From a virus (lineage: Duplodnaviria; Caudoviricetes): DNA of 64,000 bases. Positions 1,403-37,456 of the stretch are shown piece after piece; within the stretch, counting starts at the first letter, position 1, and each line of letters starts with the position of its first letter. The notes under the pieces were generated by a model. That model saw only the letters and a program-made list of their open reading frames with translations, ran no database searches and had not been told where the DNA came from. The stretch spans positions 1 to 64,000 of the IMG/VR virus record IMGVR_UViG_3300005573_000075; one strand, given 5' to 3'. The position numbers were made by a program, and so were the translations under genes.

Positions 1403-1933
1403 TTACTTTTCTAAAAGTTCTTTGTTTTGCCCTTTTAGAGATTTAAGTATTTCTTTCTCTATCTTAGTAGTGGGATTATTAACATCATAGAATTCCGCTA
1501 TTCTAGCTAAAGCATAAGAATCGGCCTCATCATCATTTTTGAACTCCGCTTTCCATTTTTTAAAAATGGAAAGCATCATTTGGTTTTTTTCTGTTCTTCC
1601 AGAGCCAGTTACATATTTTTTCAATGTCATTGGATTGACATTTATAAAAGGTAGTTTATTATCGGTCATAACTATTTTATACATCCCGCCTAATTCCCCC
1701 AGTGAAAAGCTATGCCCTGCCCGGATATTAAAAGTATAAGATTCCAAAGCTATTAATTTTACATCTAAATTAATATTTTTTAAAATATTTAAAAACTCAT
1801 TCCTGATATAAATTAATCTATCTACTCCTCTTAATGTTTTTGGCTGGATATTAAAAACATTAAAAGTTCCGTCAGGATTTAGCAATGTAATAGCACTATG
1901 GGTTAAAGAAGGGTCTATACCTATATATTTCAT
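1403..1933 (-). CDS. ruvC: RuvC-like Holliday junction resolvase
   Basis: YIGIDPSLTHSA, IALESY, LGELGG, KKYVTGSGRTEKNQM, DDEADSYALA: all RuvC acidic catalytic positions present. Confidence 0.9.
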   Translation of the reverse strand: MKYIGIDPSLTHSAITLLNPDGTFNVFNIQPKTLRGVDRLIYIRNEFLNILKNINLDVKLIALESYTFNIRAGHSFSLGELGGMYKIVMTDNKLPFINVNPMTLKKYVTGSGRTEKNQMMLSIFKKWKAEFKNDDEADSYALARIAEFYDVNNPTTKIEKEILKSLKGQNKELLEK

Positions 1934-2676
1934 TCTGTCTCCACACCGAATATACTTATTATATAATTTGGGAAGAAATCGAAAGGCAGATACCCATATC
2001 CTTTATCTCCCCATTCCAAACCATAACTATTAAGAAATTTAATTTGTTTTTTTTCCATATCATATCCGCAGGCACACACCGCATGCCCGCCAAGGAGATT
2101 CTCTCCTTGGCTGGGGGTAGTGACTATACCAGTTTTAGTGGTATATGGCGATTCAAAAGAATCGTAGACCATAAAGCCTAGCGCAGCTACATTTTCTTTT
2201 GACAAATGTAAAATTAATTGGTTTAATGTTACCAGTGGCGCAATATTTTTTACTCTATATTGCGCAGCATTTAGATACGCGGCGGATAACGGCGCTTGGA
2301 AAATGTCTTTATTTGTATCTGGAATATCGGGGTGATATATTTCTTCGCAGATACCATGCGTGTATAAAACGTCGACCACATCAGACAACCTGGCGCCATT
2401 ATCTGAACTTTCCGTATGCTCAGTCTGTCGGCCTAAGTAGTAAGCAAATAACGGAGATAACAATTTTTTATTTTGCAAGTAAAAATATCGCATAGCGCTG
2501 GTTGCATATCCAGTGCATGCGTTTTGGTTATATTGATTCCTAACGATTAATCCTTGAGATAGATCTATTTTGTTTTGGACATCAATAGGTTCATATGCCT
2601 GTCTGCAAAATATTTTTTTCTCAGGTAAAAGATTATATTTTCTTAGTTTGGATTTTATTGTGCGATACAGTTCCAT
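1930..2676 (-). CDS. papain-like (C1 family) cysteine peptidase
   Basis: RNQYNQNACTGYA (oxyanion Q, catalytic C), GGHAVCACGYD (H), FLNSYGLEWG (N). Confidence 0.9.
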   Translation of the reverse strand: MELYRTIKSKLRKYNLLPEKKIFCRQAYEPIDVQNKIDLSQGLIVRNQYNQNACTGYATSAMRYFYLQNKKLLSPLFAYYLGRQTEHTESSDNGARLSDVVDVLYTHGICEEIYHPDIPDTNKDIFQAPLSAAYLNAAQYRVKNIAPLVTLNQLILHLSKENVAALGFMVYDSFESPYTTKTGIVTTPSQGENLLGGHAVCACGYDMEKKQIKFLNSYGLEWGDKGYGYLPFDFFPNYIISIFGVETE

Positions 2677-2689
2677 GTCAATACCTCCT

Positions 2690-2921
2690 TTACATATTAC
2701 AAAATTTTTTAAAACTCTGTCAAGCGTTAATTTGGAAGATATACAAAAATAGCCAAATCTATATCATTTAAATATGCTTCTATTAACTGTTTTACTTTAT
2801 TCCATTACATATTACAAAATTTTTTAAAACTCTGTCAAGCGTTAATTTGGAAGATATACAAAAATAGCCAAATCTATATCATTTAAATATGCTTCTATTA
2901 ACTGTTTTACTTTATTCCATT
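2690..2921. repeat. perfect 115-bp tandem duplication
   Basis: 2690-2804 is repeated at 2805-2919 with a TT junction overlap; covers the 3' end of the macrodomain gene and a promoter. Confidence 0.95.
2694..2723 (-). promoter_or_regulatory. sigma70-like promoter for the peptidase operon (second copy at 2809-2838)
   Basis: Minus strand TTGACA-N18-TAATAT followed by AAGGAGGT and the peptidase ATG. Confidence 0.65.
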
Positions 2922-3291
2922 CCAATCCTCCATTCCCGCACCCTAGTGCGGGAATGGCGATGGATTCAATTTTAGCTTCAGGATCATTATCGCCAAATGG
3001 GCGTTCCTTTAAAAAATTTGATATAGCTTTTAACCCTGCTTCAACATATTCATATTTTGAAGGGTTCCTCCAATCTTCTTTTGTAGGAATATTTAATATT
3101 ATTTTATTTTTCTCTTTTACAGCCAAATATCCGCCTATATTTAATTTTTTTTCTTTGCATACTTCTTTGTACTCTGAAAAATTAAATGGATATTCTTTTT
3201 TGAATTGTAGAGCTAATCCTTTCCCCATTACTCCCACAGTATTGACTTTGGCAGAACTTTCAAGAATATTTCCTTGCATGTAAAAAATCAT
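2842..3291 (-). CDS. macrodomain ADP-ribose glycohydrolase, DarG/TARG1-like (start revised to 3291)
   Basis: VNTVGVMGKGLALQFKK, ILNIPTKEDWR, IAIPALGCGNGGLEW; AAGGAGGT 8 nt before ATG 3291, with ATGA overlap on the upstream gene. Confidence 0.9.
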   Translation of the reverse strand: MIFYMQGNILESSAKVNTVGVMGKGLALQFKKEYPFNFSEYKEVCKEKKLNIGGYLAVKEKNKIILNIPTKEDWRNPSKYEYVEAGLKAISNFLKERPFGDNDPEAKIESIAIPALGCGNGGLEWNKVKQLIEAYLNDIDLAIFVYLPN

Positions 3292-3605
3292 TTGAAAAAC
3301 CTCCTTATTATTAAAAAAATAATGAGTCCCCATGGTATTAAAGGTAAAATAATCCATACAAATACATTCCGCCAATTGATTCTATAAAATGTTTTTAATA
3401 TTTGTTGTAACTTAAATTTTATAGATTTTGTATTACTCCATTTTTCTATCCCTTCATACCAACCATCATGAAAGCCAGAATCGTATGCAAGTTCCACGAG
3501 ATTTAGCAAGTTATACTCAAATGAAAATTGTAAATTTTTTGAATTTCTTTTTCTAGCCAAATTTTTTGCTCGCTTCAATAATTCTTCTTTTGTTAATGTG
3601 AACAT
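3288..3605 (-). CDS. hypothetical membrane protein
   Basis: RBS AGGAGGAG; C-terminal hydrophobic stretch VFVWIILPLIPWGLIIFLII. Confidence 0.65.
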   Translation of the reverse strand: MFTLTKEELLKRAKNLARKRNSKNLQFSFEYNLLNLVELAYDSGFHDGWYEGIEKWSNTKSIKFKLQQILKTFYRINWRNVFVWIILPLIPWGLIIFLIIRRFFK

Positions 3606-3617
3606 TTCTCCTCCTCC

Positions 3618-4976
3618 TTAATTTCCTGATGAAATTAAGGTTTTTACTAATGAACAACTACGTTTAATAGCTTCTTTAAGAATATATGCACTATCCACGA
3701 TCCCCTCTTCGAGGGGGTCCACAAATTTTTTCTTTTCAAAAGAAAAAATTTGGGTAGGGTGGAGATAATTTGATACAGGATCCCCACATATCTTTTGTAT
3801 CAAATTATAGCATACTTGTGCAACTGCTTTTTTTAACCCTTTTGGAAATTCATTATTTTCCAGTCCCCACCAATGTAGAAAATCAAAGCCGCCTTTTATT
3901 CCGCCATAGATTAAAATATTTTTATGAACCATTAATGCATTTTTTATATCTGTATATAAATCCTCTCTATTTGTGCCGCCTATGTATACCGTTGCGTTTT
4001 TACCATACAATCGGCTTACTTTTGATACTACAGCCATTTTATCTAGGTTAGAGCTATACAAATCTTTTTTATTTAAAATTTTATCTAAATCAATGTCTAC
4101 ATTTTGAAATGAAAATTTTATGTACTTATCAAATTTATTAATTTCTATTGAATCTAATGTCCCTAAATCTGTTGGTGAAATAGACGAAGATGCTATATTA
4201 CATTTCGTGAAAGTTTTCATATCCTCCATAAAATCTATTCGTTTATCATCAACAAATGGCAATCTAATAACCGCTCCATCAATATTTCCTTTTTGTATAT
4301 TAAGATACATAGTTTGGAGCGCTTTTTTTTCAATTGATTTACAAAAAATTATTAAAGGTGTTTTTAAATTGTGGCAGATATTTAACAGTGATACAAATTC
4401 ATTAGAATAATTTAATGAATTATTTAAAACAGCAACATTAACATTTTGAAATTTTATGATATCAAGTTTATACAATTCAAAAATATCAGGCGATAAAATA
4501 TCGGAAGATATTATAAATCCATTATGGAGTACTATTTTGATATCCTCGATTTTATTCGTTCTTTTTAAATCCGCTATTCCGTATTTGCCTATATGATTAG
4601 CAACATATTGAATTAATCCGCTATATTTTTTATCTTTTAAATGAGTATTAATACTTTTGGAATTGGTGTATGAAAATCTAATTTTAGCTAAATAAGCGAT
4701 TAAATTTTTTTGCAACAAATCCAATTCGTTCACAATAGTATTTATTTCCATCCCGCTTACTTTCATTTTCTTATAATATTCTAGCAAATTGTATGTAACC
4801 AATCCGAAGAAATTAAATCCACCACCACAATCGTCTATTAATTTTCTACCCTCTTGCCATATTAAATTACTGACCAAATCTGTGGATATATCTGTGTAAC
4901 CTAAGTAAGATAATTTTTTCCCGTTGTATAGTAAATTTCTACCGTCAAACAAATTCAATAAAAACAATTTTTTCAT
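3618..4976 (-). CDS. highly divergent group I chaperonin (GroEL-like); probable start 4976
   Basis: Apical segment KTPLIIFCKSIEKKALQTMYLN..AVIRLPFVDDKRIDFMEDM, RLYGKNATVYIGG and GIVDSAYILKEAI align by eye with GroEL [50 protein letters not shown] and GILDPTKVTRSAL. Confidence 0.78.
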   Translation of the reverse strand: MKKLFLLNLFDGRNLLYNGKKLSYLGYTDISTDLVSNLIWQEGRKLIDDCGGGFNFFGLVTYNLLEYYKKMKVSGMEINTIVNELDLLQKNLIAYLAKIRFSYTNSKSINTHLKDKKYSGLIQYVANHIGKYGIADLKRTNKIEDIKIVLHNGFIISSDILSPDIFELYKLDIIKFQNVNVAVLNNSLNYSNEFVSLLNICHNLKTPLIIFCKSIEKKALQTMYLNIQKGNIDGAVIRLPFVDDKRIDFMEDMKTFTKCNIASSSISPTDLGTLDSIEINKFDKYIKFSFQNVDIDLDKILNKKDLYSSNLDKMAVVSKVSRLYGKNATVYIGGTNREDLYTDIKNALMVHKNILIYGGIKGGFDFLHWWGLENNEFPKGLKKAVAQVCYNLIQKICGDPVSNYLHPTQIFSFEKKKFVDPLEEGIVDSAYILKEAIKRSCSLVKTLISSGN

Positions 4977-25025: not shown

Positions 25026-26108
25026 ATGGTGATTAAAAATAAAAACAATGAATTAGCTAAGTTGGTTCAAGATTGGAAAAATCAGCATGAAATGTATTCT
25101 TATACATTAGAAGATTTTGTAGAGGAATACAAAGGGGATAATTTTTTTTTAACTTATAAAGTTGATGGTGAATTAACAGGGTTTCATTATAAAAATGGGA
25201 AGACTATTCTTTCTACTAAAAGTGGGATATTAAAAACTGATTTTATAATATCTAAAGAATTAGAAAAATTATTAGCTGATTATACAGAAGTTATAGGTAT
25301 AGGGGAATTATACGCTGTTGATGAAAACGGTAAAATGCTACCTTATACTAAATCAGCTTCTATTATAAGAAAACCTTCCCCTGAAACTGAGAATCAATTG
25401 CGATATTTAATTTTTGATATATTTTCTATTAATGGAAAAAAAATAAAAGATACCGTTGAAAATAAAGTTGATACAATAAATAATATTTTTAAAAATTCAA
25501 TCTATATCCAACCATTAAAATTTAAAGAATCAAATATAGACGATTTAGAAAAAGAATGGGAAAAGGTAGAACAAGGCACATATGAAGGTTTTGTAATTAT
25601 AGATAAGGATAATAATTATATTAAAATAAAGCCGATTCTTACATTTGATTTAGCGGTTATTTTTGTAGAAATAAGCAATACACATCCTGATATGATGGGT
25701 GCGCTGGGGTTAGCTTTTAAGGATAAAAACGATAACTTTTATTTTGCGGGGAAAGTGGGTACCGGATTTTCTCAAAAAGATAGAATACAATGGTTAAATA
25801 TTGCAAAAAAAGATAAAATAAAACAAGAAGATAGTATTATATGGATATATCCTTCTTATGTAGTAGAAGTGGAAAGTATGGGTATTAATTCAAGAGAAAC
25901 AGAAGTATATGATACAGGTTTGAATTTTATTAAAAAGGATATAGGATATATATTAAGGCAGCCAAGATTTAAACAAATTAGAGAAGATAAATCACCTTTA
26001 AATAAAGAAGATGTAAGAATTTCACAAGTACCAGGGTATAAATATAGTACATTAAAATCTACTTTAATTAAAAATTCTTTTTGGATAAAATATTCAAAAG
26101 AAAGATGA
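25026..26108 (+). CDS. ATP-dependent DNA ligase (LigD/LigC-like ligase plus OB domain)
   Basis: Motifs I TYKVDGE, III GELYA, IIIa YLIFDI, IV EGFVI, V IKIKP, OB-domain GKVGTGFS, VI LRQPRFKQIREDK. Confidence 0.95.
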   Translation: MVIKNKNNELAKLVQDWKNQHEMYSYTLEDFVEEYKGDNFFLTYKVDGELTGFHYKNGKTILSTKSGILKTDFIISKELEKLLADYTEVIGIGELYAVDENGKMLPYTKSASIIRKPSPETENQLRYLIFDIFSINGKKIKDTVENKVDTINNIFKNSIYIQPLKFKESNIDDLEKEWEKVEQGTYEGFVIIDKDNNYIKIKPILTFDLAVIFVEISNTHPDMMGALGLAFKDKNDNFYFAGKVGTGFSQKDRIQWLNIAKKDKIKQEDSIIWIYPSYVVEVESMGINSRETEVYDTGLNFIKKDIGYILRQPRFKQIREDKSPLNKEDVRISQVPGYKYSTLKSTLIKNSFWIKYSKER

Positions 26109-26263: not shown

Positions 26264-27361
26264 ATGGTAAGATTAACCTATTATTGTAATTTAAAAGGTA
26301 ATAAAGAGAAACTAGCGTTTCTGGAACAGCAATATAAATATGCTCAAATAATAGCTAGGTATTACCTTTGGTATATCAAATCAACTAAAGAGTATAGGAA
26401 ATCAGAAATACATAAAGTTACATATGAAAAAATAAGAACTAAGTATCCATTTCTGTATTCTAAATTAATACAACATATAAGGAATAAAGTGTTAGCTTCA
26501 GTAAAAGCTAAAAAACTCTATAAAGTCAAAAAATTAAATATTCCTCTAATTTTTGATTATCAAAATTTTGATATAGGATTTAAAGAAGGTTACTATAATG
26601 CATGGATAAGATTGTGTAAAAATAATTATCCATTAGAAGGTTTAAGAACGATTAATAAGTTAAAAGAAGTAGTAAGTATAAAAGAGATTCAAATAAAAAA
26701 GATAAACAATGCATGGAGAATATACTTCATATGTGAGGTAAAAGAAAACAATAATGTTAAAGGAAATCAGAGGTTAGGTATAGATATCAACATAAAAAAT
26801 ATAACCCTTTCAAATAATAAAAGATTCAATCTAAAACAATATGTTCATAAAAAAATAGAATACAGAAAGCATAAACAAAAGGATAAAATAGTAAGATACT
26901 CTAAAGATTTCTTCCATAAGTTGACTTCTGAGTTGGTTAAGTATCTAATAGAAATGGGAGGTTCTCAAATTATATTAGAGAATCTAACTAATATTAGGAA
27001 GTCAAGTTCTAGAAAAGAAGGAACATCTAAAGGGAAAAATGTAAATTACTTAATCAATAATGTATTTCTGTATAAGATGTTTCAAGAGTTTCTAGAGTAT
27101 AAATGTAAGTTAAATGGGATAGAAGTTAAATATATCAATCCAAGGAATACTAGTAAGACTTGTGAATGTGGATCCATGGATACTAATAGACCTAAACAAA
27201 GTCTATTAATATGTAATACTTGTGGAAGAAGATTAAACGCAGATTTAAATGGAGCTAAAAACATCTTGAAGTTTTCACTTCAAGATGGGTCGCCGAGTCG
27301 TTCCGACCCGTCTGAACTCCTTAAACAAAACAGACAAGCCCTCGGCTTTAGCCGTGGGTAG
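26264..27361 (+). CDS. tnpB: TnpB RNA-guided nuclease, copy 2
   Basis: Nearly identical to 5506..6606; catalytic D/E/D and zinc ribbon intact. Confidence 0.95.
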   Translation: MVRLTYYCNLKGNKEKLAFLEQQYKYAQIIARYYLWYIKSTKEYRKSEIHKVTYEKIRTKYPFLYSKLIQHIRNKVLASVKAKKLYKVKKLNIPLIFDYQNFDIGFKEGYYNAWIRLCKNNYPLEGLRTINKLKEVVSIKEIQIKKINNAWRIYFICEVKENNNVKGNQRLGIDINIKNITLSNNKRFNLKQYVHKKIEYRKHKQKDKIVRYSKDFFHKLTSELVKYLIEMGGSQIILENLTNIRKSSSRKEGTSKGKNVNYLINNVFLYKMFQEFLEYKCKLNGIEVKYINPRNTSKTCECGSMDTNRPKQSLLICNTCGRRLNADLNGAKNILKFSLQDGSPSRSDPSELLKQNRQALGFSRG

Positions 27362-27385
27362 ATGACTTTAAGCATAAATCAATGT
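27235..27385 (+). ncRNA. predicted omegaRNA/reRNA plus flanking guide, copy 2 (5' boundary approximate)
   Basis: Stems GGGTCG/CGACCC, GTCTG/CAGAC and the right-end hairpin; covaries with copy 1. Confidence 0.6.
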
Positions 27386-29946
27386 GGGGGGATAATACAA
27401 AAGATGAAAATATGGAAGAAGAACCAGTAGAAAAGAAGTCCATGTGGGTAAAAGAATCGATTAAAACATTAAAACATCCAGGTACTGTAATAATATCTCC
27501 TAATGAATATTATACTAAAGGATTAACGGAGCAAGATATTTATGATTATTATGAAAGGGTAAAAGATAACTTATTAAAATTATATGAAGAATATAAATTG
27601 GATTGCCTTTTGAAAATAAAGATAGATAATACTTTAATAGTAAAAAGATTGAAAAACGAAGAATTATTAAAATCATGGAATGTTATAAATAATGGTAGAA
27701 CAGTAGAATTTCATATAGTATTACCAACTCAATATTCTCGTATTTATTGGATAGATTTAGATCCTAAAGAAAAGTTTCCTTTTGAAACTGTGTATGAAAT
27801 TGCTGAAAAAATTAAAAATTTATGTTTAAAAAATATATCAAATACTTCTGATGTTGTTATTAATTATACTGGGGGAAGAGGAATGTATGTTATAGGATTT
27901 TTAAATAAGGAACAAGATGTTAATAAGATAAAAAATACTTTAAAAGAATTAATAGAATCTAATATTATACCTGAATATCCTAAAACAACATTAGGATTTA
28001 CAAAAGAATCTGATAATATGCGTATAGATTTATCCACATTACATAAGTTAGGATCTATAAGATCTCCATATTCTTTAAATGCTACTACAGGATTAGTATC
28101 AAAAGAATTAAAAAGTTTAGATAAAGAAGATTATAATATTAATTTTTTTAAAAAGAGTTTCACATTCAATCTTTGGATTCTACAGGCTACATTATTACCT
28201 CAGATAATTGGGGAAATAAATACTTTAAATAAAGATCCTGAATATATAAATAGAATTATAGATACATTATATGTAATGTCTTCATTTATAAAAGGATTAG
28301 AAGGTAAAAGTAAAGAAGAAATAAAAAAGGTGTATACACAAGAATGGAAAGAAGAGATGAAATCACGTATAAATAATATAATATCAACAATTAATTCAGG
28401 AAGAATTCCTAATAGTAAAGATTGGGAATTAATATTTACTTATTCTGATAAATTTAAAGATAATATAAACATGCAATCATTATTAGAAAAAGTAATAAAA
28501 ATGAAGTATGCAATTGAAAGAGGAGATAGAGAACGAATAGATAAACCTGAATTTTTAACATTGATAGCTAAATTTTTAATAAGAAGACCATATGAAAAAA
28601 CAAATTTATCAAAAGAATTAATACAAAAAATACAAAATAAGATAGGAGAAAGCTCATCAGCATCATTAGATTATTTGTTATCTGTAGCTAAGGGATATAG
28701 ACCAGAATATCAAGAGTATAGAAAAGATTGGGTAACTGTTGTGTTAGAAAAGAATAAAAGAACTGGTAGGGATATAGATGAGGATGATTTAGAAGATACT
28801 ATATCTTTTATAAAATTATTAAATAGAAGTGGAGAAAAATTAACTGATGATGAAAAAAAAGCTATAGAACAGATATTTTTAAAATTTCCTTTGTATGCTA
28901 TTAAAGTAGCAGATGAATTAATAAATTTAGGGGTTAGTTTAGATAAGAATACATTAATAGAAGAAATAGCAAAAAATTCAGGAAATTCTTTTGAATATGC
29001 TAAATTATTAATAGAAAAAAGAAAAGATATAAAAGAAATACCTGAAATAATAATACAAGGAATAGCTCAAAATTCGATAAGTTCTTATGATTTTGCTAAA
29101 TTATTAATAGAAAAAGGAAAAGATATAAAAGAAATACCTGAAATTATACTACAAGGAATAGCACAAGATTCAGTATATTCTTATTATTTTGCTGAGTTCT
29201 TAATAGATCAAGGGAAAGATATAAAAGAAATACCTGAAATTATAATACAAGGAATAGCCCAAAGTTCAAGGAATTCTTATTATTTTGCTGACTTATTAAT
29301 AGATCAAGGGAAAGATATAAAAGAAATACCTGAAATTATACTACAAGGAGTAGCCCAAAGTTCGGATGATTCTTATTATTTTGCTAAATTCTTAATAGAA
29401 CAAGGAAAAGATGTTAAGGAAATTCATGAGGGTATAATACAAAGTATTTTAAGGGATAAAGAATATAAAGAAAAATATTTTGATTTATTACGACAATATA
29501 ATTTGCCATTACCAGAAGAATATGAAATAAAAAATGAAAATAGGGAAGAAGAACCAGTAGAAAAGAAGTCCATGTGGGTAAATTCAAATAAAAAACAATT
29601 GACAATAAGGGGGATATATAATAAGGGGTATAAGATTTATCCTTTATACTCCTTAGCTTTTGTGGCAAAAGAGGCGTATGATATAGCCAGGGAACATTTA
29701 AACAAAGATACAGTTAGCAAGTACATGGATATGGTAAAAAATATTGAAGATACTAAAGAAAGAAATGAAGCGGCTTTTAATCTTTGGATAACTACTGAAG
29801 GATATTTACCTTATGAGGAAACGATTTCAAAAATAAGAAATAAAATTGATACTTTTTCAAAATATGAGAGAATTACGGTATCTAGATTAATTGAAAAATT
29901 TAGAAATTTTTTGAAACAACAGTTTGTAAATATAGGAAAAGCGTAA
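27382..29946 (+). CDS. multidomain protein: LigD-type primase-polymerase (AEP) domain, helical region, 5 x 32-aa repeats
   Basis: GLTEQDIYDYY, RTVEFH, motif I YWIDLDP, motif II-like YTGGRGMYV (His replaced by Tyr), MRIDLS, RSPYSLNATTGLVS are LigD Pol-domain hallmarks. Confidence 0.85.
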   Translation: MWGDNTKDENMEEEPVEKKSMWVKESIKTLKHPGTVIISPNEYYTKGLTEQDIYDYYERVKDNLLKLYEEYKLDCLLKIKIDNTLIVKRLKNEELLKSWNVINNGRTVEFHIVLPTQYSRIYWIDLDPKEKFPFETVYEIAEKIKNLCLKNISNTSDVVINYTGGRGMYVIGFLNKEQDVNKIKNTLKELIESNIIPEYPKTTLGFTKESDNMRIDLSTLHKLGSIRSPYSLNATTGLVSKELKSLDKEDYNINFFKKSFTFNLWILQATLLPQIIGEINTLNKDPEYINRIIDTLYVMSSFIKGLEGKSKEEIKKVYTQEWKEEMKSRINNIISTINSGRIPNSKDWELIFTYSDKFKDNINMQSLLEKVIKMKYAIERGDRERIDKPEFLTLIAKFLIRRPYEKTNLSKELIQKIQNKIGESSSASLDYLLSVAKGYRPEYQEYRKDWVTVVLEKNKRTGRDIDEDDLEDTISFIKLLNRSGEKLTDDEKKAIEQIFLKFPLYAIKVADELINLGVSLDKNTLIEEIAKNSGNSFEYAKLLIEKRKDIKEIPEIIIQGIAQNSISSYDFAKLLIEKGKDIKEIPEIILQGIAQDSVYSYYFAEFLIDQGKDIKEIPEIIIQGIAQSSRNSYYFADLLIDQGKDIKEIPEIILQGVAQSSDDSYYFAKFLIEQGKDVKEIHEGIIQSILRDKEYKEKYFDLLRQYNLPLPEEYEIKNENREEEPVEKKSMWVNSNKKQLTIRGIYNKGYKIYPLYSLAFVAKEAYDIAREHLNKDTVSKYMDMVKNIEDTKERNEAAFNLWITTEGYLPYEETISKIRNKIDTFSKYERITVSRLIEKFRNFLKQQFVNIGKA
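27414..27452 (+). repeat. 39-bp perfect direct repeat (second copy 29544-29582)
   Basis: GGAAGAAGAACCAGTAGAAAAGAAGTCCATGTGGGTAAA at both sites, 2130 bp apart, encoding EEEPVEKKSMWV. Confidence 0.95.
28975..29454 (+). repeat. 5 x 96-bp coding repeats (32 aa)
   Basis: Consensus xSxxSYxFAxxLIxxGKDIKEIPEIIxQGIAQ. Confidence 0.95.
29599..29623 (+). promoter_or_regulatory. conserved phage promoter motif, internal to ORF 27382..29946
   Basis: TTGACAATAAGGGGGATATATAATA. Confidence 0.7.
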
Positions 29947-31145: not shown

Positions 31146-32582
31146 ATGGAAATAATATTTGATAGAAAAGCTTTTTTAGGCTATAAAGAAAAAATAAATA
31201 AAGAGAAGTATATATCAAAAGGAGTTACTGAAAAGCTTGATAATGTGCAGAAGGATTATTCTATAAAAGAAAGTCTTCCTGTAGATAAAATAGGAGAAGA
31301 AAACATCACAAAAGGAGAAAAAGGAGAATTAAAATTTCCCAAAGCCAATACCGATGAAATGTTTCATTCCGCTAGCAGAGGGGAAGATAAAGTTAAAGAA
31401 TATGTTTCAGCTATGGTGGATAAATTAGTTAAAGAAGGTTATTCAAAAGAACAAGCTATGGAAAAAGCGCTTTCAGAAGTTAAAGCTAGAGGATATGATA
31501 TACCTGAGAAAAAAGCTGCAAAATTAACAGATGAAGCCCAAGAATTTATATCCAACAAAATTAAACTTTTAATAGAAGAGGGATATGATCAGGAGCAGGC
31601 GGCAGCTATTGCTTACAGTCAAGCCAGAGAAAAAGGATATGATGTCCCAGAGAAAAAGGAGGCAGGTGTTAAGATGGCTAAAATAGATAATATTCAAGAA
31701 GGTGAAAAAGGGAAATTGGATTTTCCTACCTCGCAGGATAAACATGACCCTAGTGTTAAACAACCTTATCTTAAGACAGATAAGCCTACAATATCAAAAG
31801 GTCCAGAGGAGAAAATAAATATTGAAAAATCTCAAGCTTCATTTCCTTCTGCTGAATTGAAGGTCTCTACAGAGAGTGGTAATGAATTTAAAGAAGAAGG
31901 GGATAAAGGGGCATTTAAAAAGATAAATCCTGAACCGGGAGTATCTGCCGATAAACTTAAAGATGCAGATAAACCGTTCTCAGATTATGAACAGGTCCCA
32001 AAAATGATGAAGCAATTTAATATAAAGTTTTATAAAAAGCAAGATCCTTATATGTATAAAGAGGCTATGGTAGGCGCAATAGATTCTTCTATAAAGAATA
32101 TGGAAACGATAGCTTTGGCCTTAGGGAAAAATATATTTGATACCCCAATAGCCCCTATATATGCAGGATTGATACTTGCAAGAGATGTTAATACCCTTAT
32201 AGTTACTGCTGCAGATAGCAAAAAAACTATATTTACATTGTTAAAAGAATTAAAAGATAAATATATGACTGAGAAGGGGTTTGATAAAGAGAAGTTTAAA
32301 GGTGAATTTAAAGGGGCATTGAAAGGATTAACGGATAAATTTGCTGATTGGATGGAACAGTATGATTTTAAAGAAGAATCAGGTTCCAAAAAAGAACCAG
32401 GTGAAAAAGGGGAATCTAAAGGCCCTTTTGGAGCTGGTGATGAGAAGAAAGAGAAGGGCGGATTTCCTTTTGGCAAAGGTAAAGAAAAAGGTGAATTTCC
32501 ATTTGGCAAAGAGAAAGGTTCAGAAGAAGAACCAGAAGATAAAAATATTTTGGAAAAGATTAGTAGATTCCTTTTTTCTTAA
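31146..32582 (+). CDS. charged internal-head/scaffold-like protein with a duplicated EGYxxEQAxxxAxSxxxxxGYDxPEKK module
   Basis: RBS AAGGAGG; internal repeat and FPFG repeats visible in the translation. Confidence 0.65.
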   Translation: MEIIFDRKAFLGYKEKINKEKYISKGVTEKLDNVQKDYSIKESLPVDKIGEENITKGEKGELKFPKANTDEMFHSASRGEDKVKEYVSAMVDKLVKEGYSKEQAMEKALSEVKARGYDIPEKKAAKLTDEAQEFISNKIKLLIEEGYDQEQAAAIAYSQAREKGYDVPEKKEAGVKMAKIDNIQEGEKGKLDFPTSQDKHDPSVKQPYLKTDKPTISKGPEEKINIEKSQASFPSAELKVSTESGNEFKEEGDKGAFKKINPEPGVSADKLKDADKPFSDYEQVPKMMKQFNIKFYKKQDPYMYKEAMVGAIDSSIKNMETIALALGKNIFDTPIAPIYAGLILARDVNTLIVTAADSKKTIFTLLKELKDKYMTEKGFDKEKFKGEFKGALKGLTDKFADWMEQYDFKEESGSKKEPGEKGESKGPFGAGDEKKEKGGFPFGKGKEKGEFPFGKEKGSEEEPEDKNILEKISRFLFS

Positions 32583-32630: not shown

Positions 32631-34070
32631 ATGTTTTTAAAAGAAAGTCAAAATATATCAGATTTATATGACCTTTTTTTAACTAAGCGTACTGAGTTTG
32701 CACAGTTATTAGGTGTAGATGAAGGTTTAATTACAATTCCTAATATGAATGCTGAAGTTGTACTGCAAAAATTTAAAGGAAATACCCAATTAAATAATAT
32801 AAAAAAAGTATTAGATGCCACAAAATCTGCGATAGAAAAACAATTCGGGATACGTCCTGAATCTGTGAGCATAGAAACAATATTATTGGGAATGTTAAAT
32901 GAGAAATTCAAAATAGGGGCTAGGAGTCTGGAAGAAATAACCAATTTACAAGACGTGGTATCTCTTTTATTAGAAGATACAGGGTTTATAAATAATTATT
33001 TAACTCAGATGCAGAATATTTTGAAAAAAGAAGATATGGTATTTCAAGTAATAGATGGGATTGAAAAGGAATTTAATATCACAATAGATATAAAAGAGGT
33101 AGCTAGTTGGTTTAATACGGCCCCTGTAGGAATAAGTTATTTAAAAATGTCTCCTGAAAAATTATATGGCACGATTATTTCTATCCCGGGGATATGGGCA
33201 AGAATAAATAAAATTATAGCTACTTCTTTTATAAAAATAATATCTACAGAATTATCTGAGCAAGGGATAGATGTAACTATAAAAATATTGGATATTACTC
33301 CAAAAAATATACGTCATTTTTTTAATAGTATACAGAAAATAAAGGATATAATATCTTTAGTAAATAATGGGGAAATAGATATATCATTGGAAGTTAATTT
33401 AGTACCTTTAGAAGGGTGGCCAACAACTATTACAACTTTTGAAGATTTTGTTAATTTTTATAATAACATAAAAGAATATAAAAAAGATTTAAAAGAAGTT
33501 CAAACAAAAAAAAGGGAAGAGCAGGAAAAAGTAATAAAAGAGAAGGAGAAGGCAGAAAAAGGGGAAGAACTAAAAAAACAAAAAGAAAAAGAAGAGAAAG
33601 AAAAGGCAGAAAAATTTAAAGAAGAAGAAAAAGAAAAGAAAGAAAAAGAACAATTTACAACATTTGAAAGTGAATTTATAAATAGTAGCTATTCTCTAAT
33701 TAAAAATATAACTAGTAGTGGTTCAATTTATGATTTAATAGATAAGATAAAACCTTATACAGAGAAGAGTGATACATTATTTAAGTTATTTACTATTTTA
33801 CAAAGTATAAGCGATAATATTACTTCTTTGAATACAATAGAATCTGCAATATCAAAAGCTAAAAAAGAAGTTTTACAATATCATAGGCAATATTACTTAG
33901 AAAAAATGAACGATATAAAAAAAGAAGTAGAAGACAATTTGGCAGGATTAGAATTATTTTTTGAGCAGTTAGGTAAACCATTAGATAAAGAGTATAATCT
34001 GAAAAATATAATCTATTCAGATATAGATAATTTGCAGAAAAAGATAGAAGGATTAGGAGGGGGTCAATGA
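32631..34070 (+). CDS. hypothetical coiled-coil protein (479 aa)
   Basis: Long ORF with an E/K-rich coiled coil. Confidence 0.7.
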   Translation: MFLKESQNISDLYDLFLTKRTEFAQLLGVDEGLITIPNMNAEVVLQKFKGNTQLNNIKKVLDATKSAIEKQFGIRPESVSIETILLGMLNEKFKIGARSLEEITNLQDVVSLLLEDTGFINNYLTQMQNILKKEDMVFQVIDGIEKEFNITIDIKEVASWFNTAPVGISYLKMSPEKLYGTIISIPGIWARINKIIATSFIKIISTELSEQGIDVTIKILDITPKNIRHFFNSIQKIKDIISLVNNGEIDISLEVNLVPLEGWPTTITTFEDFVNFYNNIKEYKKDLKEVQTKKREEQEKVIKEKEKAEKGEELKKQKEKEEKEKAEKFKEEEKEKKEKEQFTTFESEFINSSYSLIKNITSSGSIYDLIDKIKPYTEKSDTLFKLFTILQSISDNITSLNTIESAISKAKKEVLQYHRQYYLEKMNDIKKEVEDNLAGLELFFEQLGKPLDKEYNLKNIIYSDIDNLQKKIEGLGGGQ

Positions 34071-35734
34071 ATTTAAAATTTTTGTTTAAAAAAATAAGCG
34101 AATACCTAGACAAAAATTTAAATAGAGAAGAAACTGTCGACCCTCACGAGTTAGAAATGGGTATTAAAGAAGAAATGGAACATACCGATGATCCAGAAAT
34201 AGCTAAGGAAATAGCATTAGACCATTTAGAAGAGCATCCTAATTATTATACAAAATTAAAAGAAGTTTTCTCTACTTTAAATAAGAAAGCACAGGCGTAT
34301 CAAATTACTGTGAATGACAAAATTTACGATATAGATATTACTCAAGAAGTTGATACTACTAATGAAAACTCTGTTATAAAATATTACATTACGTTTAAAG
34401 AGTATCCTGATATGTCTTTTGAAATTGAAAATGCAGAAGAAATTCCTGAGCCGGAATTGAAAGATATAATTGTGGATTATATAGTTAATTTTAAAGATTT
34501 AGCAATAAAAAGTTATATAGAAGATCAAATTCCGGTAGACCAATCTGATTTCAATTATAAAGATAAGAGAACAGATACTGAGGATTATTATGACAAATTA
34601 GGCCAATCTTTAGATAAACCAAAACCGGATGGTGAAAGTAGCATGCCTGTAAGAGAAAAAAATAAATATCCTTATCCTTCCACAGGGTGGTACTCAGACA
34701 TGAGAGGTTCTTCAGAACCACCTTCCGATTATAGCGATAGCAATTATTCAAAAGCTAAGGAAGGAGATTTACGGCCAGATTGGGCTACAGAAAGCAAATT
34801 TTCTTGGATAGATAAAGATGAGTTATTTAAGTTTATGAAATTATGCAAACTGTTTAAGATTAACAGAGAATTGACAAGAAATGCAACTATATATAAATAT
34901 CTTCCTTTTTTTGTAAAGAATAGTGCATACTACAGGTTATTGGATGCTTATTTAAATATTTTATTTGAGCCAGTGGATAATATTATTAATATTAATAATA
35001 GTAATAAAAGTATTATTAATTTAGTTGATGCCTTATATGCTAAGGGATATAATAAATCTACAATTAAAAAAGAAGCATATAAAGAATTTGAAAAGGAGAT
35101 TTATTCTGATAATAATATAAAAAAAGAAATTAAACAATATATAAAGTTTAAATTTTCTCCTAGATTACTAATAGCGTCGGATATGCGCCCGTATTTAAAA
35201 GTAAAGCATATAAAAAATCCTTTAAAAGAAGGGGTTATATTAAATGTTATAGAGGATACCCCTAGCGAGGCCAGGATATATGTATATTGGTTATCAGACG
35301 ATTCATTAGATTTTGTTAATGAAAATGATTTAATAATTACAGGAGAACCTACTTTTGAAGAGATGAAGAAAGTTAATGAAAAGGAGCAGCAAAAAGTTAG
35401 TATGCTTACAATACAAAAGAATCCTTTTAATTGGTATTTAAGCTCTTTCTTGCAAACTTTTAGGGAATTACCTGTAAAATATGCTGAATTTAGAGAATGG
35501 GCGAAGGATATAAAAGATTATACTTTATTCGATAGTTTAGAAACTTTTTTGATAGGTACTAATTTAGTTAATATTACGCCAGGGTTGACAAAATTAAATG
35601 CTAAAAAAGTGGTGTATGTTTCTTCTGATAATGCAACTAAAGTTATTGAATTAGGGGAGGGCGAAGAACCTCCTGAGAAAATAACAGATGATGCAGGAAA
35701 AGAGTATTCTAAAATCGGAGAAAAGAATGAATGA
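34067..35734 (+). CDS. multidomain protein with an N-terminal DUF5661-like module
   Basis: VDPHELEMGIKEEMEHTDDPEIAKEIALDHLEEHPNYYTKLKE. Confidence 0.75.
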   Translation: MNLKFLFKKISEYLDKNLNREETVDPHELEMGIKEEMEHTDDPEIAKEIALDHLEEHPNYYTKLKEVFSTLNKKAQAYQITVNDKIYDIDITQEVDTTNENSVIKYYITFKEYPDMSFEIENAEEIPEPELKDIIVDYIVNFKDLAIKSYIEDQIPVDQSDFNYKDKRTDTEDYYDKLGQSLDKPKPDGESSMPVREKNKYPYPSTGWYSDMRGSSEPPSDYSDSNYSKAKEGDLRPDWATESKFSWIDKDELFKFMKLCKLFKINRELTRNATIYKYLPFFVKNSAYYRLLDAYLNILFEPVDNIININNSNKSIINLVDALYAKGYNKSTIKKEAYKEFEKEIYSDNNIKKEIKQYIKFKFSPRLLIASDMRPYLKVKHIKNPLKEGVILNVIEDTPSEARIYVYWLSDDSLDFVNENDLIITGEPTFEEMKKVNEKEQQKVSMLTIQKNPFNWYLSSFLQTFRELPVKYAEFREWAKDIKDYTLFDSLETFLIGTNLVNITPGLTKLNAKKVVYVSSDNATKVIELGEGEEPPEKITDDAGKEYSKIGEKNE

Positions 35735-37031
35735 TGCAGAAAAAATAATAGCTATTGATTTTGATAATGTTATTGCCAAAGAGGAAGAAAATGGTAAAAT
35801 AGGCGAAGAAATTCCTTATGCCTGTGAAACTATTAAAAAATTAACTGAAGAAGGGTGGAAAATATATATTCATTCACACCGCGCTGCAGATCCTAAAGAA
35901 AAAATGAATATGGAAGTTTGGTTAAATTCAAGGGGATTAAATATTCCTATTATGGAGAAACCATTTGCCAGATTTTATATTGATGATAGAGCTATAGAGT
36001 TTAATGATTGGAATAAAGTATATGATAGATTAAAAAATGATATTCCTGTATCTGTAATAAAAACTCCGATAACTACTATTTTACCTGGCATTGAAGAGCA
36101 TATTAAAATGTTGGATACTCCATATTTAAATGAATCAGATTATATAGCAATAATTAATAGATTAAAAAATTTATATGGGATAAATGTAACTTATGAGGAA
36201 TTTGAAAAATATAATTCCCAATATCTTTGGGATTCAAAGATATTGAGATTAGCTAATAAATTATCAGCTAATTATATTCAAGAAGGGGATAGCGTTTTAA
36301 TATTGCATGGTAAATATTTAGGGGAATTAGGCACAGTGTATAGCATAAAAGATAGCGAAGCAGAGATTATATGCGATAGCAATAATAAATTTTTGAGATT
36401 TGAAGATTATATGAATAAGCTTAAATATTTCCCATATATATTTAAAAAAGCCTGCAAAGGCCCTTCTAAACTAGTTAATAAATATTATCCGAATGGATTA
36501 TCTATAGAAAAGATATCTAAATATTATAAAGATAATTTTCCCATGATATATTCTTATTTTGAAGATCCTAAAATTATCGGAGTTTTTGATGTGTATGGTT
36601 CTTTATATCGTATGGCAATAGAAGATATTAATGATATAAATATGGATAGATTAAGAGGGGTATACAATATAATACCAAATAATAGATGCTATCAACCATT
36701 GAGAATTAGGAGGGGGCCTAGATTTTTTGGAGAGTTTAAAAATTCATTAGCAGATTTGATATGCGCATTATCTCCATATGTAATAGATTTTAAGTTAAGT
36801 ATAGAGGGGGATAAAGGGGTTATATTATATTTACTATTTGATAAACAAGTTAATGAAGAACTATTATCGAATTTAAAAGAAGTATTGAAAGATTTTAAAC
36901 ATATGGATATAGACGATAATATTAAAGTGGTTCCAGCTATAGATTCGATAGATGTTAATACGGGATTAATTAATAAAAAAGTGTCACTGGAAGACTATAA
37001 TTACCCTATTGCGACAATTGAAGGGGAATAA
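35727..37031 (+). CDS. HAD-family phosphatase plus KOW/SH3-like motif plus degenerate LigD-Pol-like domain (start revised to 35727)
   Basis: IIAIDFDNVI, IHSHR, KPFARFYIDDRA (HAD motifs); C-terminus aligns by eye with the Pol domain of 27382..29946. Confidence 0.78.
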   Translation: MNDAEKIIAIDFDNVIAKEEENGKIGEEIPYACETIKKLTEEGWKIYIHSHRAADPKEKMNMEVWLNSRGLNIPIMEKPFARFYIDDRAIEFNDWNKVYDRLKNDIPVSVIKTPITTILPGIEEHIKMLDTPYLNESDYIAIINRLKNLYGINVTYEEFEKYNSQYLWDSKILRLANKLSANYIQEGDSVLILHGKYLGELGTVYSIKDSEAEIICDSNNKFLRFEDYMNKLKYFPYIFKKACKGPSKLVNKYYPNGLSIEKISKYYKDNFPMIYSYFEDPKIIGVFDVYGSLYRMAIEDINDINMDRLRGVYNIIPNNRCYQPLRIRRGPRFFGEFKNSLADLICALSPYVIDFKLSIEGDKGVILYLLFDKQVNEELLSNLKEVLKDFKHMDIDDNIKVVPAIDSIDVNTGLINKKVSLEDYNYPIATIEGE

Positions 37032-37456
37032 TGGAATTAGAGGAATATAAAGAAAAACGAGATTGGACCAAAACTCCTGAACCAAAGGGAGATGGATCTA
37101 AAGTCTCTAAATTAGTTATCCAGCAACATGAAGCCAAAAGGGCGGGGAACCATTACGATTGGAGAATCCCGTATAAAGGGGTATTAAAGTCTTTTGTAAC
37201 TAAAAAATTACCTAAAAAGGGAGAAAAGATATTAGCAATTCCTACAGAGGATCATCCATTAGCTTATGCCTCCTTCGAGGGGGAAATACCTGAGGGTACA
37301 TATGGAGCGGGGAAAGTGACTAAAAAAGGAGAGTATTCTTTTAAACTTAATGAATTCTCCTCCTCCAAAATTTCATTTGAAATTTTGGAGGAGGATATGG
37401 AAGGAAAATATACTTTAATAAAATTTAAAAATGGATTTTTAATGCACAGGGGTTAA
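37031..37456 (+). CDS. LigD-type 3'-phosphoesterase, stand-alone
   Basis: LEEYKEKRDWTKTPEP, VIQQHEAKRAGNHYDWRI, LAIPTEDHPLAYASFEGEIPEGTYGAGKV. Confidence 0.95.
   Translation: MELEEYKEKRDWTKTPEPKGDGSKVSKLVIQQHEAKRAGNHYDWRIPYKGVLKSFVTKKLPKKGEKILAIPTEDHPLAYASFEGEIPEGTYGAGKVTKKGEYSFKLNEFSSSKISFEILEEDMEGKYTLIKFKNGFLMHRG

Follow-up and report, generated by a model that had tools for sequence, protein, structure and literature searches.

A HAD phosphatase joined to a degenerate LigD polymerase-type domain in a protein family of uncultured myoviruses

The window analyzed here, the first 64,000 nt of the virus record IMGVR_UViG_3300005573_000075 (Duplodnaviria; Caudoviricetes), contains on its + strand a gene (35727–37031) for a 434-residue protein in which a HAD phosphatase domain is followed by a helical linker, a KOW-like barrel and a catalytically degenerate domain with the archaeo-eukaryotic primase (AEP) fold, of the type found in the polymerase (Pol) domain of LigD. 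Its stop codon overlaps the start of a stand-alone gene for a LigD 3′-phosphoesterase (PE) of 141 residues (37031–37456, + strand). Proteins with this architecture, designated here HAD-KOW-AEP, constitute a conserved family of uncultured myoviruses. We tentatively read the degenerate domain as a binding module that would place phosphatase activities on DNA ends, possibly after delivery with the virion, and rate this reading somewhat below an even chance.

The list of open reading frames (ORFs) and the database gene call agree on a product of 434 residues. Translation could also begin at an in-frame ATG at 35688, which would give 447 residues; 35727 is the likely start because it has the sequence GGAG 8 nt upstream and overlaps the stop codon of the preceding gene by 8 nt. 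The HAD domain, which is capless, BT0820-like and with intact catalytic residues, spans positions 35727–36053, the helical linker 36054–36272, the small KOW-like β-barrel 36273–36437 and the degenerate AEP domain, of 196 residues, 36441–37028, all on the + strand. In the family alignment the linker is shorter than those of the relatives, which additionally carry an N-terminal segment of approximately 90 residues that is missing from the window protein; in a single-sequence AlphaFold2 (AF2) model the linker appeared as low-confidence helices, and this model was unusable for the entire protein (pLDDT 41). An earlier examination of the letters alone (hereafter the sequence-only reading) had proposed a HAD phosphatase fused to a dead paralogue of the LigD Pol domain; both modules were confirmed, whereas the linker and the barrel that separate them had been overlooked. 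Two candidate sequence features were discarded. Blastp of the N-terminal extensions of the relatives found no capsid-targeting segment common to neighboring proteins, and the window protein is devoid of the extension; likewise, a conserved protease-site motif ahead of the degenerate domain was too weak to count, with a basic residue in most, not all, of the linkers.

The assignment of the C-terminal domain rests first on its predicted structure. An AF2 model of the last 196 residues, obtained with a 14-row alignment, reached a pLDDT of 89.2 and a pTM of 0.85. Foldseek comparisons against PDB retrieved as top matches structures of the Pol domain (PolDom) of Mycobacterium tuberculosis LigD (E 3e-7, probability 1.0, TMq 0.67–0.73), followed by CAPP, Prim-PolC, the Methanocella non-homologous end joining (NHEJ) polymerase and the P. 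aeruginosa LigD Pol. In VIA-align, an independent all-against-all aligner, the model scored Z 14.9 to M. tuberculosis PolDom 2iru, with 192 residues aligned, and Z 14.0, 13.8, and 13.3 to three other NHEJ polymerases (among 2fao, 5dmu, and 6sa0), vs. 10.8–12.6 for PriS proteins and around 7 for unrelated folds. Across the four NHEJ polymerases 188–194 of the 196 residues were aligned, and the AEP fold is therefore common to them over nearly the entire domain. ESM Atlas, with its own model, returned AEP and LigD_Prim-Pol clusters, and BFVD returned only AEP primases, more weakly. The AEP-like fold that had been anticipated for this segment is thus supported by superpositions that are best on LigD Pol domains. 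Pfam, in turn, gave no match in the C-terminal 200 residues at E values up to 0.1, PF21686 included, nor in the same part of ten relatives, so standard annotation would leave this half of the protein nameless.

The closest sequence relatives of the degenerate domain are phage-encoded: an active-looking LigD-type Pol domain (around 27466–28113) at the N-terminus of an 854-residue ORF of the window (27382–29946, + strand), and the ligase-polymerase (Lig-Pol) protein of the related contig L009. The former was identified with Pfam LigD_Prim-Pol (34.7 bits vs. a cut-off of 27.4) and with the family hidden Markov model (HMM). A plain BLASTP comparison of HAD-KOW-AEP with the Pol ORF was marginal (E 0.018 over 45 residues), and a Smith-Waterman alignment was colinear over some 190 residues with a z of about 6 vs. 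500 shuffles. Profile methods gave significant matches: hhalign aligned the family with the window Pol domain with a probability of 98.4% and E 1e-14, the 203 aligned columns bringing together the same motifs, and a family HMM built without Pol matched the window Pol with E 4.8e-25 (82.8 bits). Neither of the outcomes that the sequence-only reading had named as refuting it, a fold unlike AEP and a non-significant profile-profile alignment with Pol, was thus obtained. Additionally, a direct blastp match to the window Pol domain was given by one family member, P0002 (E 2.4e-9 over 218 residues). Against PDB sequences at E values up to 10, the family profile retrieved PriS (E about 0.01) and no LigD Pol. 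When the two phage Pols were included in the profile, 2iru was reached only with E 1.5, and PriS with E about 0.001; the phage Pol alone had no match. The degenerate domain and the phage Pols are mutual nearest relatives, and "paralogue" is a fair word for them; judging from these comparisons, they form a phage-specific branch of LigD-type AEPs. The peptides that had been singled out before lie where they were claimed to be: NKYYPNGL (36477), QPLRIR (36693), SIEGDKG (36798), and SIDVNTGL (36945) in HAD-KOW-AEP, and NEYYTKGL (27502), WIDLDP (27748), NYTGGRGMY (27862), and SLNATTGL (28072) in the Pol ORF. Both proteins have in common the signature N-x-x-Y-P-x-G-L…Y-Y and the strand P-Y-S…T-G-L.

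The catalytic residues, in contrast to this shared framework, are largely lost. In the hhalign pairing and in a MAFFT alignment of 14 family members plus Pol, the I-D-L-D of Pol is paired with L-R-I-R, which places R-I-R (36702–36710, + strand) at the position of the D-x-D metal site of AEP motif I. The sequence-only reading had set WIDLDP against QPLRIR, and the hhalign pairing is one residue off with respect to it, with both aspartates gone either way. Likewise, T-G-G-R-G-M-Y of Pol is paired with E-G-D-K-G-V-I, in which Ile stands in for the motif II His, whereas the motif III Asp is paired with an Asp (M-D-I-D). Within the family, L015 encodes a closer relative (45% identical to the window protein, E 5e-114), recovered later and outside of the 14-member alignment, which has G-V-G at the D-x-D site and Asn at motif III. 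The D-x-D motif is essential for catalysis in characterized AEPs, and the loss of metal- and nucleotide-binding residues suggests that the domain is unable to polymerize.

Remnants of the active site are scattered among the 14 members, and could be taken as a sign that the domain is still an enzyme that relies on different residues, be it a polymerase or primase of non-canonical type or some other transferase: the motif III Asp is kept in five members (the window protein, P0002, P0003, P0006, and P0007; lost in the other nine), the motif II His (S-G-x-x-G-h-H) in P0003 and P0007, and the D-x-D in P0015 (D-I-D). The three motifs are combined in none of the 14, the L015 protein departs from two of them, and the D-x-D is indispensable in characterized AEPs, which makes this alternative highly improbable. 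Conversely, motifs without a catalytic role (N-x-x-Y-P-x-G-L, W-Y, and P-x-P-Y-S-x-x-x-T-G-L) are kept at around 20% identity and, together with the conservation of the fold, this indicates selection for a non-catalytic role. The residues of L015 also show that the old active site is drifting and has not been re-purposed; since the remnants drift even at 45% identity, the old catalytic pocket is not a conserved functional surface. For the same reason, we discarded the idea that the former D-x-D site is now a basic pocket for phosphate, which had been considered because the first residue is basic in 9 of the 14 members.

At the other end of the protein, the minimal, capless HAD domain (residues 14–122 in the 447-residue numbering) matched phrog_1238 (E 4.6e-19) and BT0820 (PDB 2obb; E 3e-6 for the window sequence by itself, 4.6e-16 when the family profile was used). 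It also matched NF046079 with E 3.4e-11, although its 43.6 bits are below the equivalog cut-off of 165, and we take it to be a relative, and not a member, of this equivalog. Motifs I–IV (D-x-D-x-T/V, S/T, K, and D-D) are all kept, as D24, D26, V28, S63, K91, D99, and D100, in agreement with the N-terminal phosphatase that had been proposed. The catalytic residues are fully kept in seven of the 12 members that bear the domain (the window protein and six others), at an overall identity of 22–29%. Protein P0073 (L016, 715–2139) has no HAD but keeps the N-terminal extension, the linker, the KOW-like barrel and the degenerate AEP domain, from which we deduce that the latter is the core of the family. 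The barrel is recognized with less confidence: the Pfam KOW match (PF00467) of the window protein alone is weak (E 0.056; 13.8 bits, below the cut-off of 22.3), and the family profile matched the Spt5 KOW domain with E 6e-4 and uL24 with E 0.009.

The company kept by this HAD type brings in another explanation, that of a nucleotide-directed counter-defense or pool-modifying protein, whose HAD would act on free or signaling nucleotides and whose degenerate AEP would be a nucleotide-binding or sponge domain. The same HAD type is found in giant multidomain proteins together with 2H/Acb1-like, inorganic pyrophosphatase (InPase), ligase, PNKP-type HAD, and HEAT domains, including fusions to 2H/Acb1-like, InPase, and thymidylate-kinase-linked proteins; for domains of this kind in injected polyvalent proteins, nucleotide signals have been proposed as the targets (PMC5512222, PMC7824862), and PHROG labels the HAD family as of the auxiliary metabolic type. 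We give this explanation a rather small chance, because the metal- and triphosphate-binding residues of the AEP domain are lost instead of conserved and because the recurring neighbor of the gene is a DNA 3′-end enzyme, not a nucleotide enzyme.

The PE gene, which is intact, was assigned to LigD_N (PF13298; 76 bits vs. a cut-off of 31.1) and TIGR02777 (E 1.2e-32), and its residues H33, H41, D43, R45, H75, and Y79 are in invariant or near-invariant columns of 45 sequences. The stop codon TAA of the HAD-KOW-AEP gene and the ATG of the PE gene share one base (TAATG), behind an AAGGGG Shine-Dalgarno-like site; the overlap had been pointed out before, and a coupled arrangement occurs as well in three other phage contigs.

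The complete record (IMG/VR; 89,780 bases, rated as complete by CheckV, around 30% G+C) shows on its + strand the gene order terminase large subunit (11197), portal (16571), head maturation protease (19206), and major head protein (22460), followed by approximately 17 kb of mostly unnamed genes, which include the HAD-KOW-AEP gene, and by the tail sheath gene (41229). Exhaustive HMMER searches were the sole means of recovering the members of the family used here, 13 further full-length proteins of 444–650 residues, 22–29% identical to that of the window; word-indexed protein searches returned only the window protein itself and P0013. In every recovered contig the gene occupies the same place, in the block between the major head and the tail sheath genes, and the block from terminase, portal, protease and major head protein, through the HAD-KOW-AEP gene, to the sheath is syntenic in L002, L005, L009, L011, L012, and L013. 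The order in the relatives is a DUF5661-bearing protein, a protein of around 440 residues, HAD-KOW-AEP, a protein of around 1000 residues, neck-like genes, and the sheath. Queries of a cultured-phage collection with DNA and protein did not reveal any carrier of the HAD/KOW/degenerate AEP architecture, with only HAD-only or distant tail matches, and a pattern search of viral_contigs gave no match. Likewise, literature searches did not uncover any account of this architecture, or of phage AEPs of LigD type that have become inactive, in line with the initial impression that it was not among the described systems. The architecture is therefore undescribed as a combination, yet every part comes from a known superfamily, and a fold retained after the loss of catalysis is a well-known pattern.

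A PE gene lies directly 3′ of the HAD-KOW-AEP gene, overlapping or abutting it, in four of 11 contexts (the window, L015, L009, with an overlap of 8 nt, and L012), whose HAD-KOW-AEP proteins are only 25–45% identical. It was found nowhere else within the sequenced head-to-tail blocks, and a LigD_N domain is fused to none of ten relatives of the protein, in a search that did not extend to longer or shorter forms, so that a fusion with PE may exist. The PE-bearing members could not be sustained as a single clade, since on the poorly resolved family tree the PE gene was gained or lost at least two times. The LigD kit is present in some relatives and missing from others, and wherever its PE occurs it is placed beside the HAD-KOW-AEP gene; this gene is thus older and more widespread than the kit.

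The remainder of the kit maps upstream in the window. An ATP-dependent DNA ligase gene (25026–26108, + strand; Pfam DNA_ligase_A_M and DNA_ligase_A_C) is followed by a TnpB-like gene (26264–27361) and then by the Pol ORF, and in L009 a single Lig-Pol ORF of 699 residues (1661–3760) occupies the site of these three genes; the arrangement of the window fits an insertion splitting an ancestral Lig-Pol gene. Unlike the degenerate domain, the phage Pols keep D-L-D and the motif III Asp and are joined, now or formerly, to a ligase. Where AEP motif II has His, the Pols from the window and L009 have Tyr, in T-G-G-R-G-M-Y (27862–27882 in the window) and S-G-G-R-G-I-Y, respectively, and the strand P-Y-S-L is followed by Asn in the phage domains and by Arg in cellular LigD Pols. 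Judged by these residues, the activity of the active-looking Pol domains should not be taken for granted. The Ku core domain (PF02735) was not detected anywhere in the 89,780-base record at E values up to 1.

In the reading that we favor, the degenerate AEP domain would persist as a module that binds either a DNA end or a partner protein and would tether the HAD phosphatase and, in the sub-lineage with the Lig-Pol gene, also the translationally coupled PE. These enzymes would thereby clean 3′ ends, on phage DNA or on broken DNA, for the Ku-less ligase-polymerase that the phage itself encodes. Because the gene is always located between the major head and tail sheath genes, the protein might be packaged, and it might then work upon DNA entry or shortly afterwards. 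The sequence-only reading had likewise proposed a scaffold for the binding or synapsis of DNA ends, which might replace Ku or dimerize with the active Pol; its structural part is supported, and its functional part is a hypothesis qualified by the independence from the LigD kit and the active-site drift described below. In LigD, the Pol domain is the DNA- and Ku-binding hub, and PE turns 3′-phosphate ends into 3′-OH (PMC13717202).

Several observations weigh against this reading. An adjacent PE gene is absent in seven of the 11 contexts (L002, L005, L010, L011, L013, L014, and the ERZ1426849 contig), and L002, the sole PE-less relative with sequence across the Lig-Pol site, is also devoid of Lig-Pol; the core role of the protein is thus independent of the LigD kit. 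The degenerate domain is not basic (pI around 6), and the drift of the active-site remnants in L015 leaves no mark of a DNA-binding surface. The HAD motifs are degenerate in P0005, P0007, and P0013, and the substrate of the HAD could be a nucleotide or a protein instead of a DNA end.

Some of these facts would equally suit a head or neck structural or assembly protein with vestigial enzyme folds, next to which PE would lie only because the junction tolerates insertions. The position of the gene in the morphogenesis block is fixed in every context, PE is missing beside it in most of the relatives, the active-site remnants drift, and the HAD is degenerate in three members and absent in another. 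We consider a purely structural role unlikely, if with a real chance of being right: seven of the 12 HAD domains retain all of the catalytic residues in spite of an identity of 22–29%, and PE occurs at exactly the same junction in four lineages, with frames overlapping or abutting, having been gained or lost at least twice and yet never placed elsewhere in the sequenced blocks.

The partner of the degenerate domain could also be a host protein. In M. tuberculosis and B. subtilis the C-terminus of Ku binds the LigD polymerase domain (PMC13717202), the nearest structural matches of the degenerate domain are Ku-dependent NHEJ polymerases, and the phage record has no Ku of its own. The domain might then bind the C-terminus of the host Ku, either to recruit the phage end-healing enzymes or as a decoy blocking host end joining. 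We assign only a slim chance to this option. The domain is approximately 100 residues smaller than LigD Pol (196 vs. 283–301), because of which surface elements may be missing, and the phages of the family differ greatly in base composition, so their hosts probably include bacteria with and without Ku.

Bacterial end joining is thought to need Ku for holding the ends and for recruiting LigD via its polymerase domain. This phage lineage has ligase, polymerase, and PE, without Ku, plus a long-kept, non-catalytic second Pol-type domain, all of them among the particle genes. A bolder version of the binding-module reading, to which we grant a small chance, is a Ku-independent, phage-delivered end joining in which the degenerate Pol domain would be the end-recognition or synapsis factor, bringing the HAD, as a 3′-phosphatase, and PE to the ends of entering or host-cut genomes for sealing by Lig-Pol. 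Should the domain indeed turn out to bind ends or recruit partners, it would illustrate the conversion of the fold of a repair polymerase into a scaffold and would provide a compact, Ku-free set for end healing and joining.

Comparison with known systems situates these features. Cellular LigD proteins have Pol-PE arrangements, as in an ESM Atlas match, and the window likewise has the degenerate Pol-type domain followed by PE. As opposed to LigD Pol, besides its smaller size, R-I-R in place of D-x-D and Ile in place of the motif II His, the degenerate domain is fused to HAD and KOW-like domains and encoded in a phage morphogenesis block. In the mycobacteriophages Omega and Corndog, a phage Ku recruits the host LigD for genome circularization; the likeness is in the use by phages of bacterial end joining machinery, whereas the present phage carries Lig, Pol, PE, and the degenerate Pol paralogue, and no Ku. 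T4 Pnkp and eukaryotic PNKP combine a small HAD phosphatase with another module for nucleic-acid ends and work alongside a ligase. HAD-KOW-AEP also tethers a small HAD to a second module, and a PNKP-type HAD co-occurs with its HAD type in one giant protein, but it has no kinase domain, its HAD is BT0820-like and not PNKP-like, and its 3′-phosphatase activity is only putative.

The protein can also be compared with the polyvalent proteins, injected multidomain proteins, for whose phage-type representatives the 2H and InPase domains are listed as specific (Iyer et al., 2017; PMC5512222). Similar traits are the presence of several enzyme-derived domains in one polypeptide, the location of the gene in the virion block, and the occurrence of 2H and InPase in the neighborhood and in HAD relatives; conversely, HAD-KOW-AEP has only three modules, and its packaging and delivery with the DNA are presumptive, from gene position and domain co-occurrence. 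The same work makes no mention of ligase, LigD, or HAD domains, and places PrimPol only in the polyvalent proteins of conjugative elements (PMC5512222).

Other genes of the block deserve a brief description. In the ERZ1426849 contig (the context of P0015) and in L010 (514–1623), the head-to-tail block includes a fusion of InPase and thymidylate kinase (698 residues) and a 2H phosphoesterase gene, which suggests that enzymes acting on nucleotides and nucleic acids are generally housed in this block. Immediately upstream of the HAD-KOW-AEP gene, a 555-residue ORF (34067–35734) merges two genes of L002 (5934–9988), one for a 910-residue protein, the end of which is matched by the DUF5661 segment of the ORF, and one for a 441-residue protein, matched by the remainder. 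The C-terminal extension of the Pol ORF contains five tandem repeats of 96 nt (32 residues; 28955–29442), 85% alike, which may be HEAT-like helical repeats, and the 11-residue sequence EEPVEKKSMWV appears twice in this ORF (27418–27450 and 29548–29580; residues 13 and 723), bracketing the Pol domain and the repeats, and could be a processing or recognition site. Finally, positions 31146–32582 encode a 478-residue protein with long low-complexity tracts rich in Lys, Glu, and Gly and a weak match to DUF6496, which is conserved in L002.

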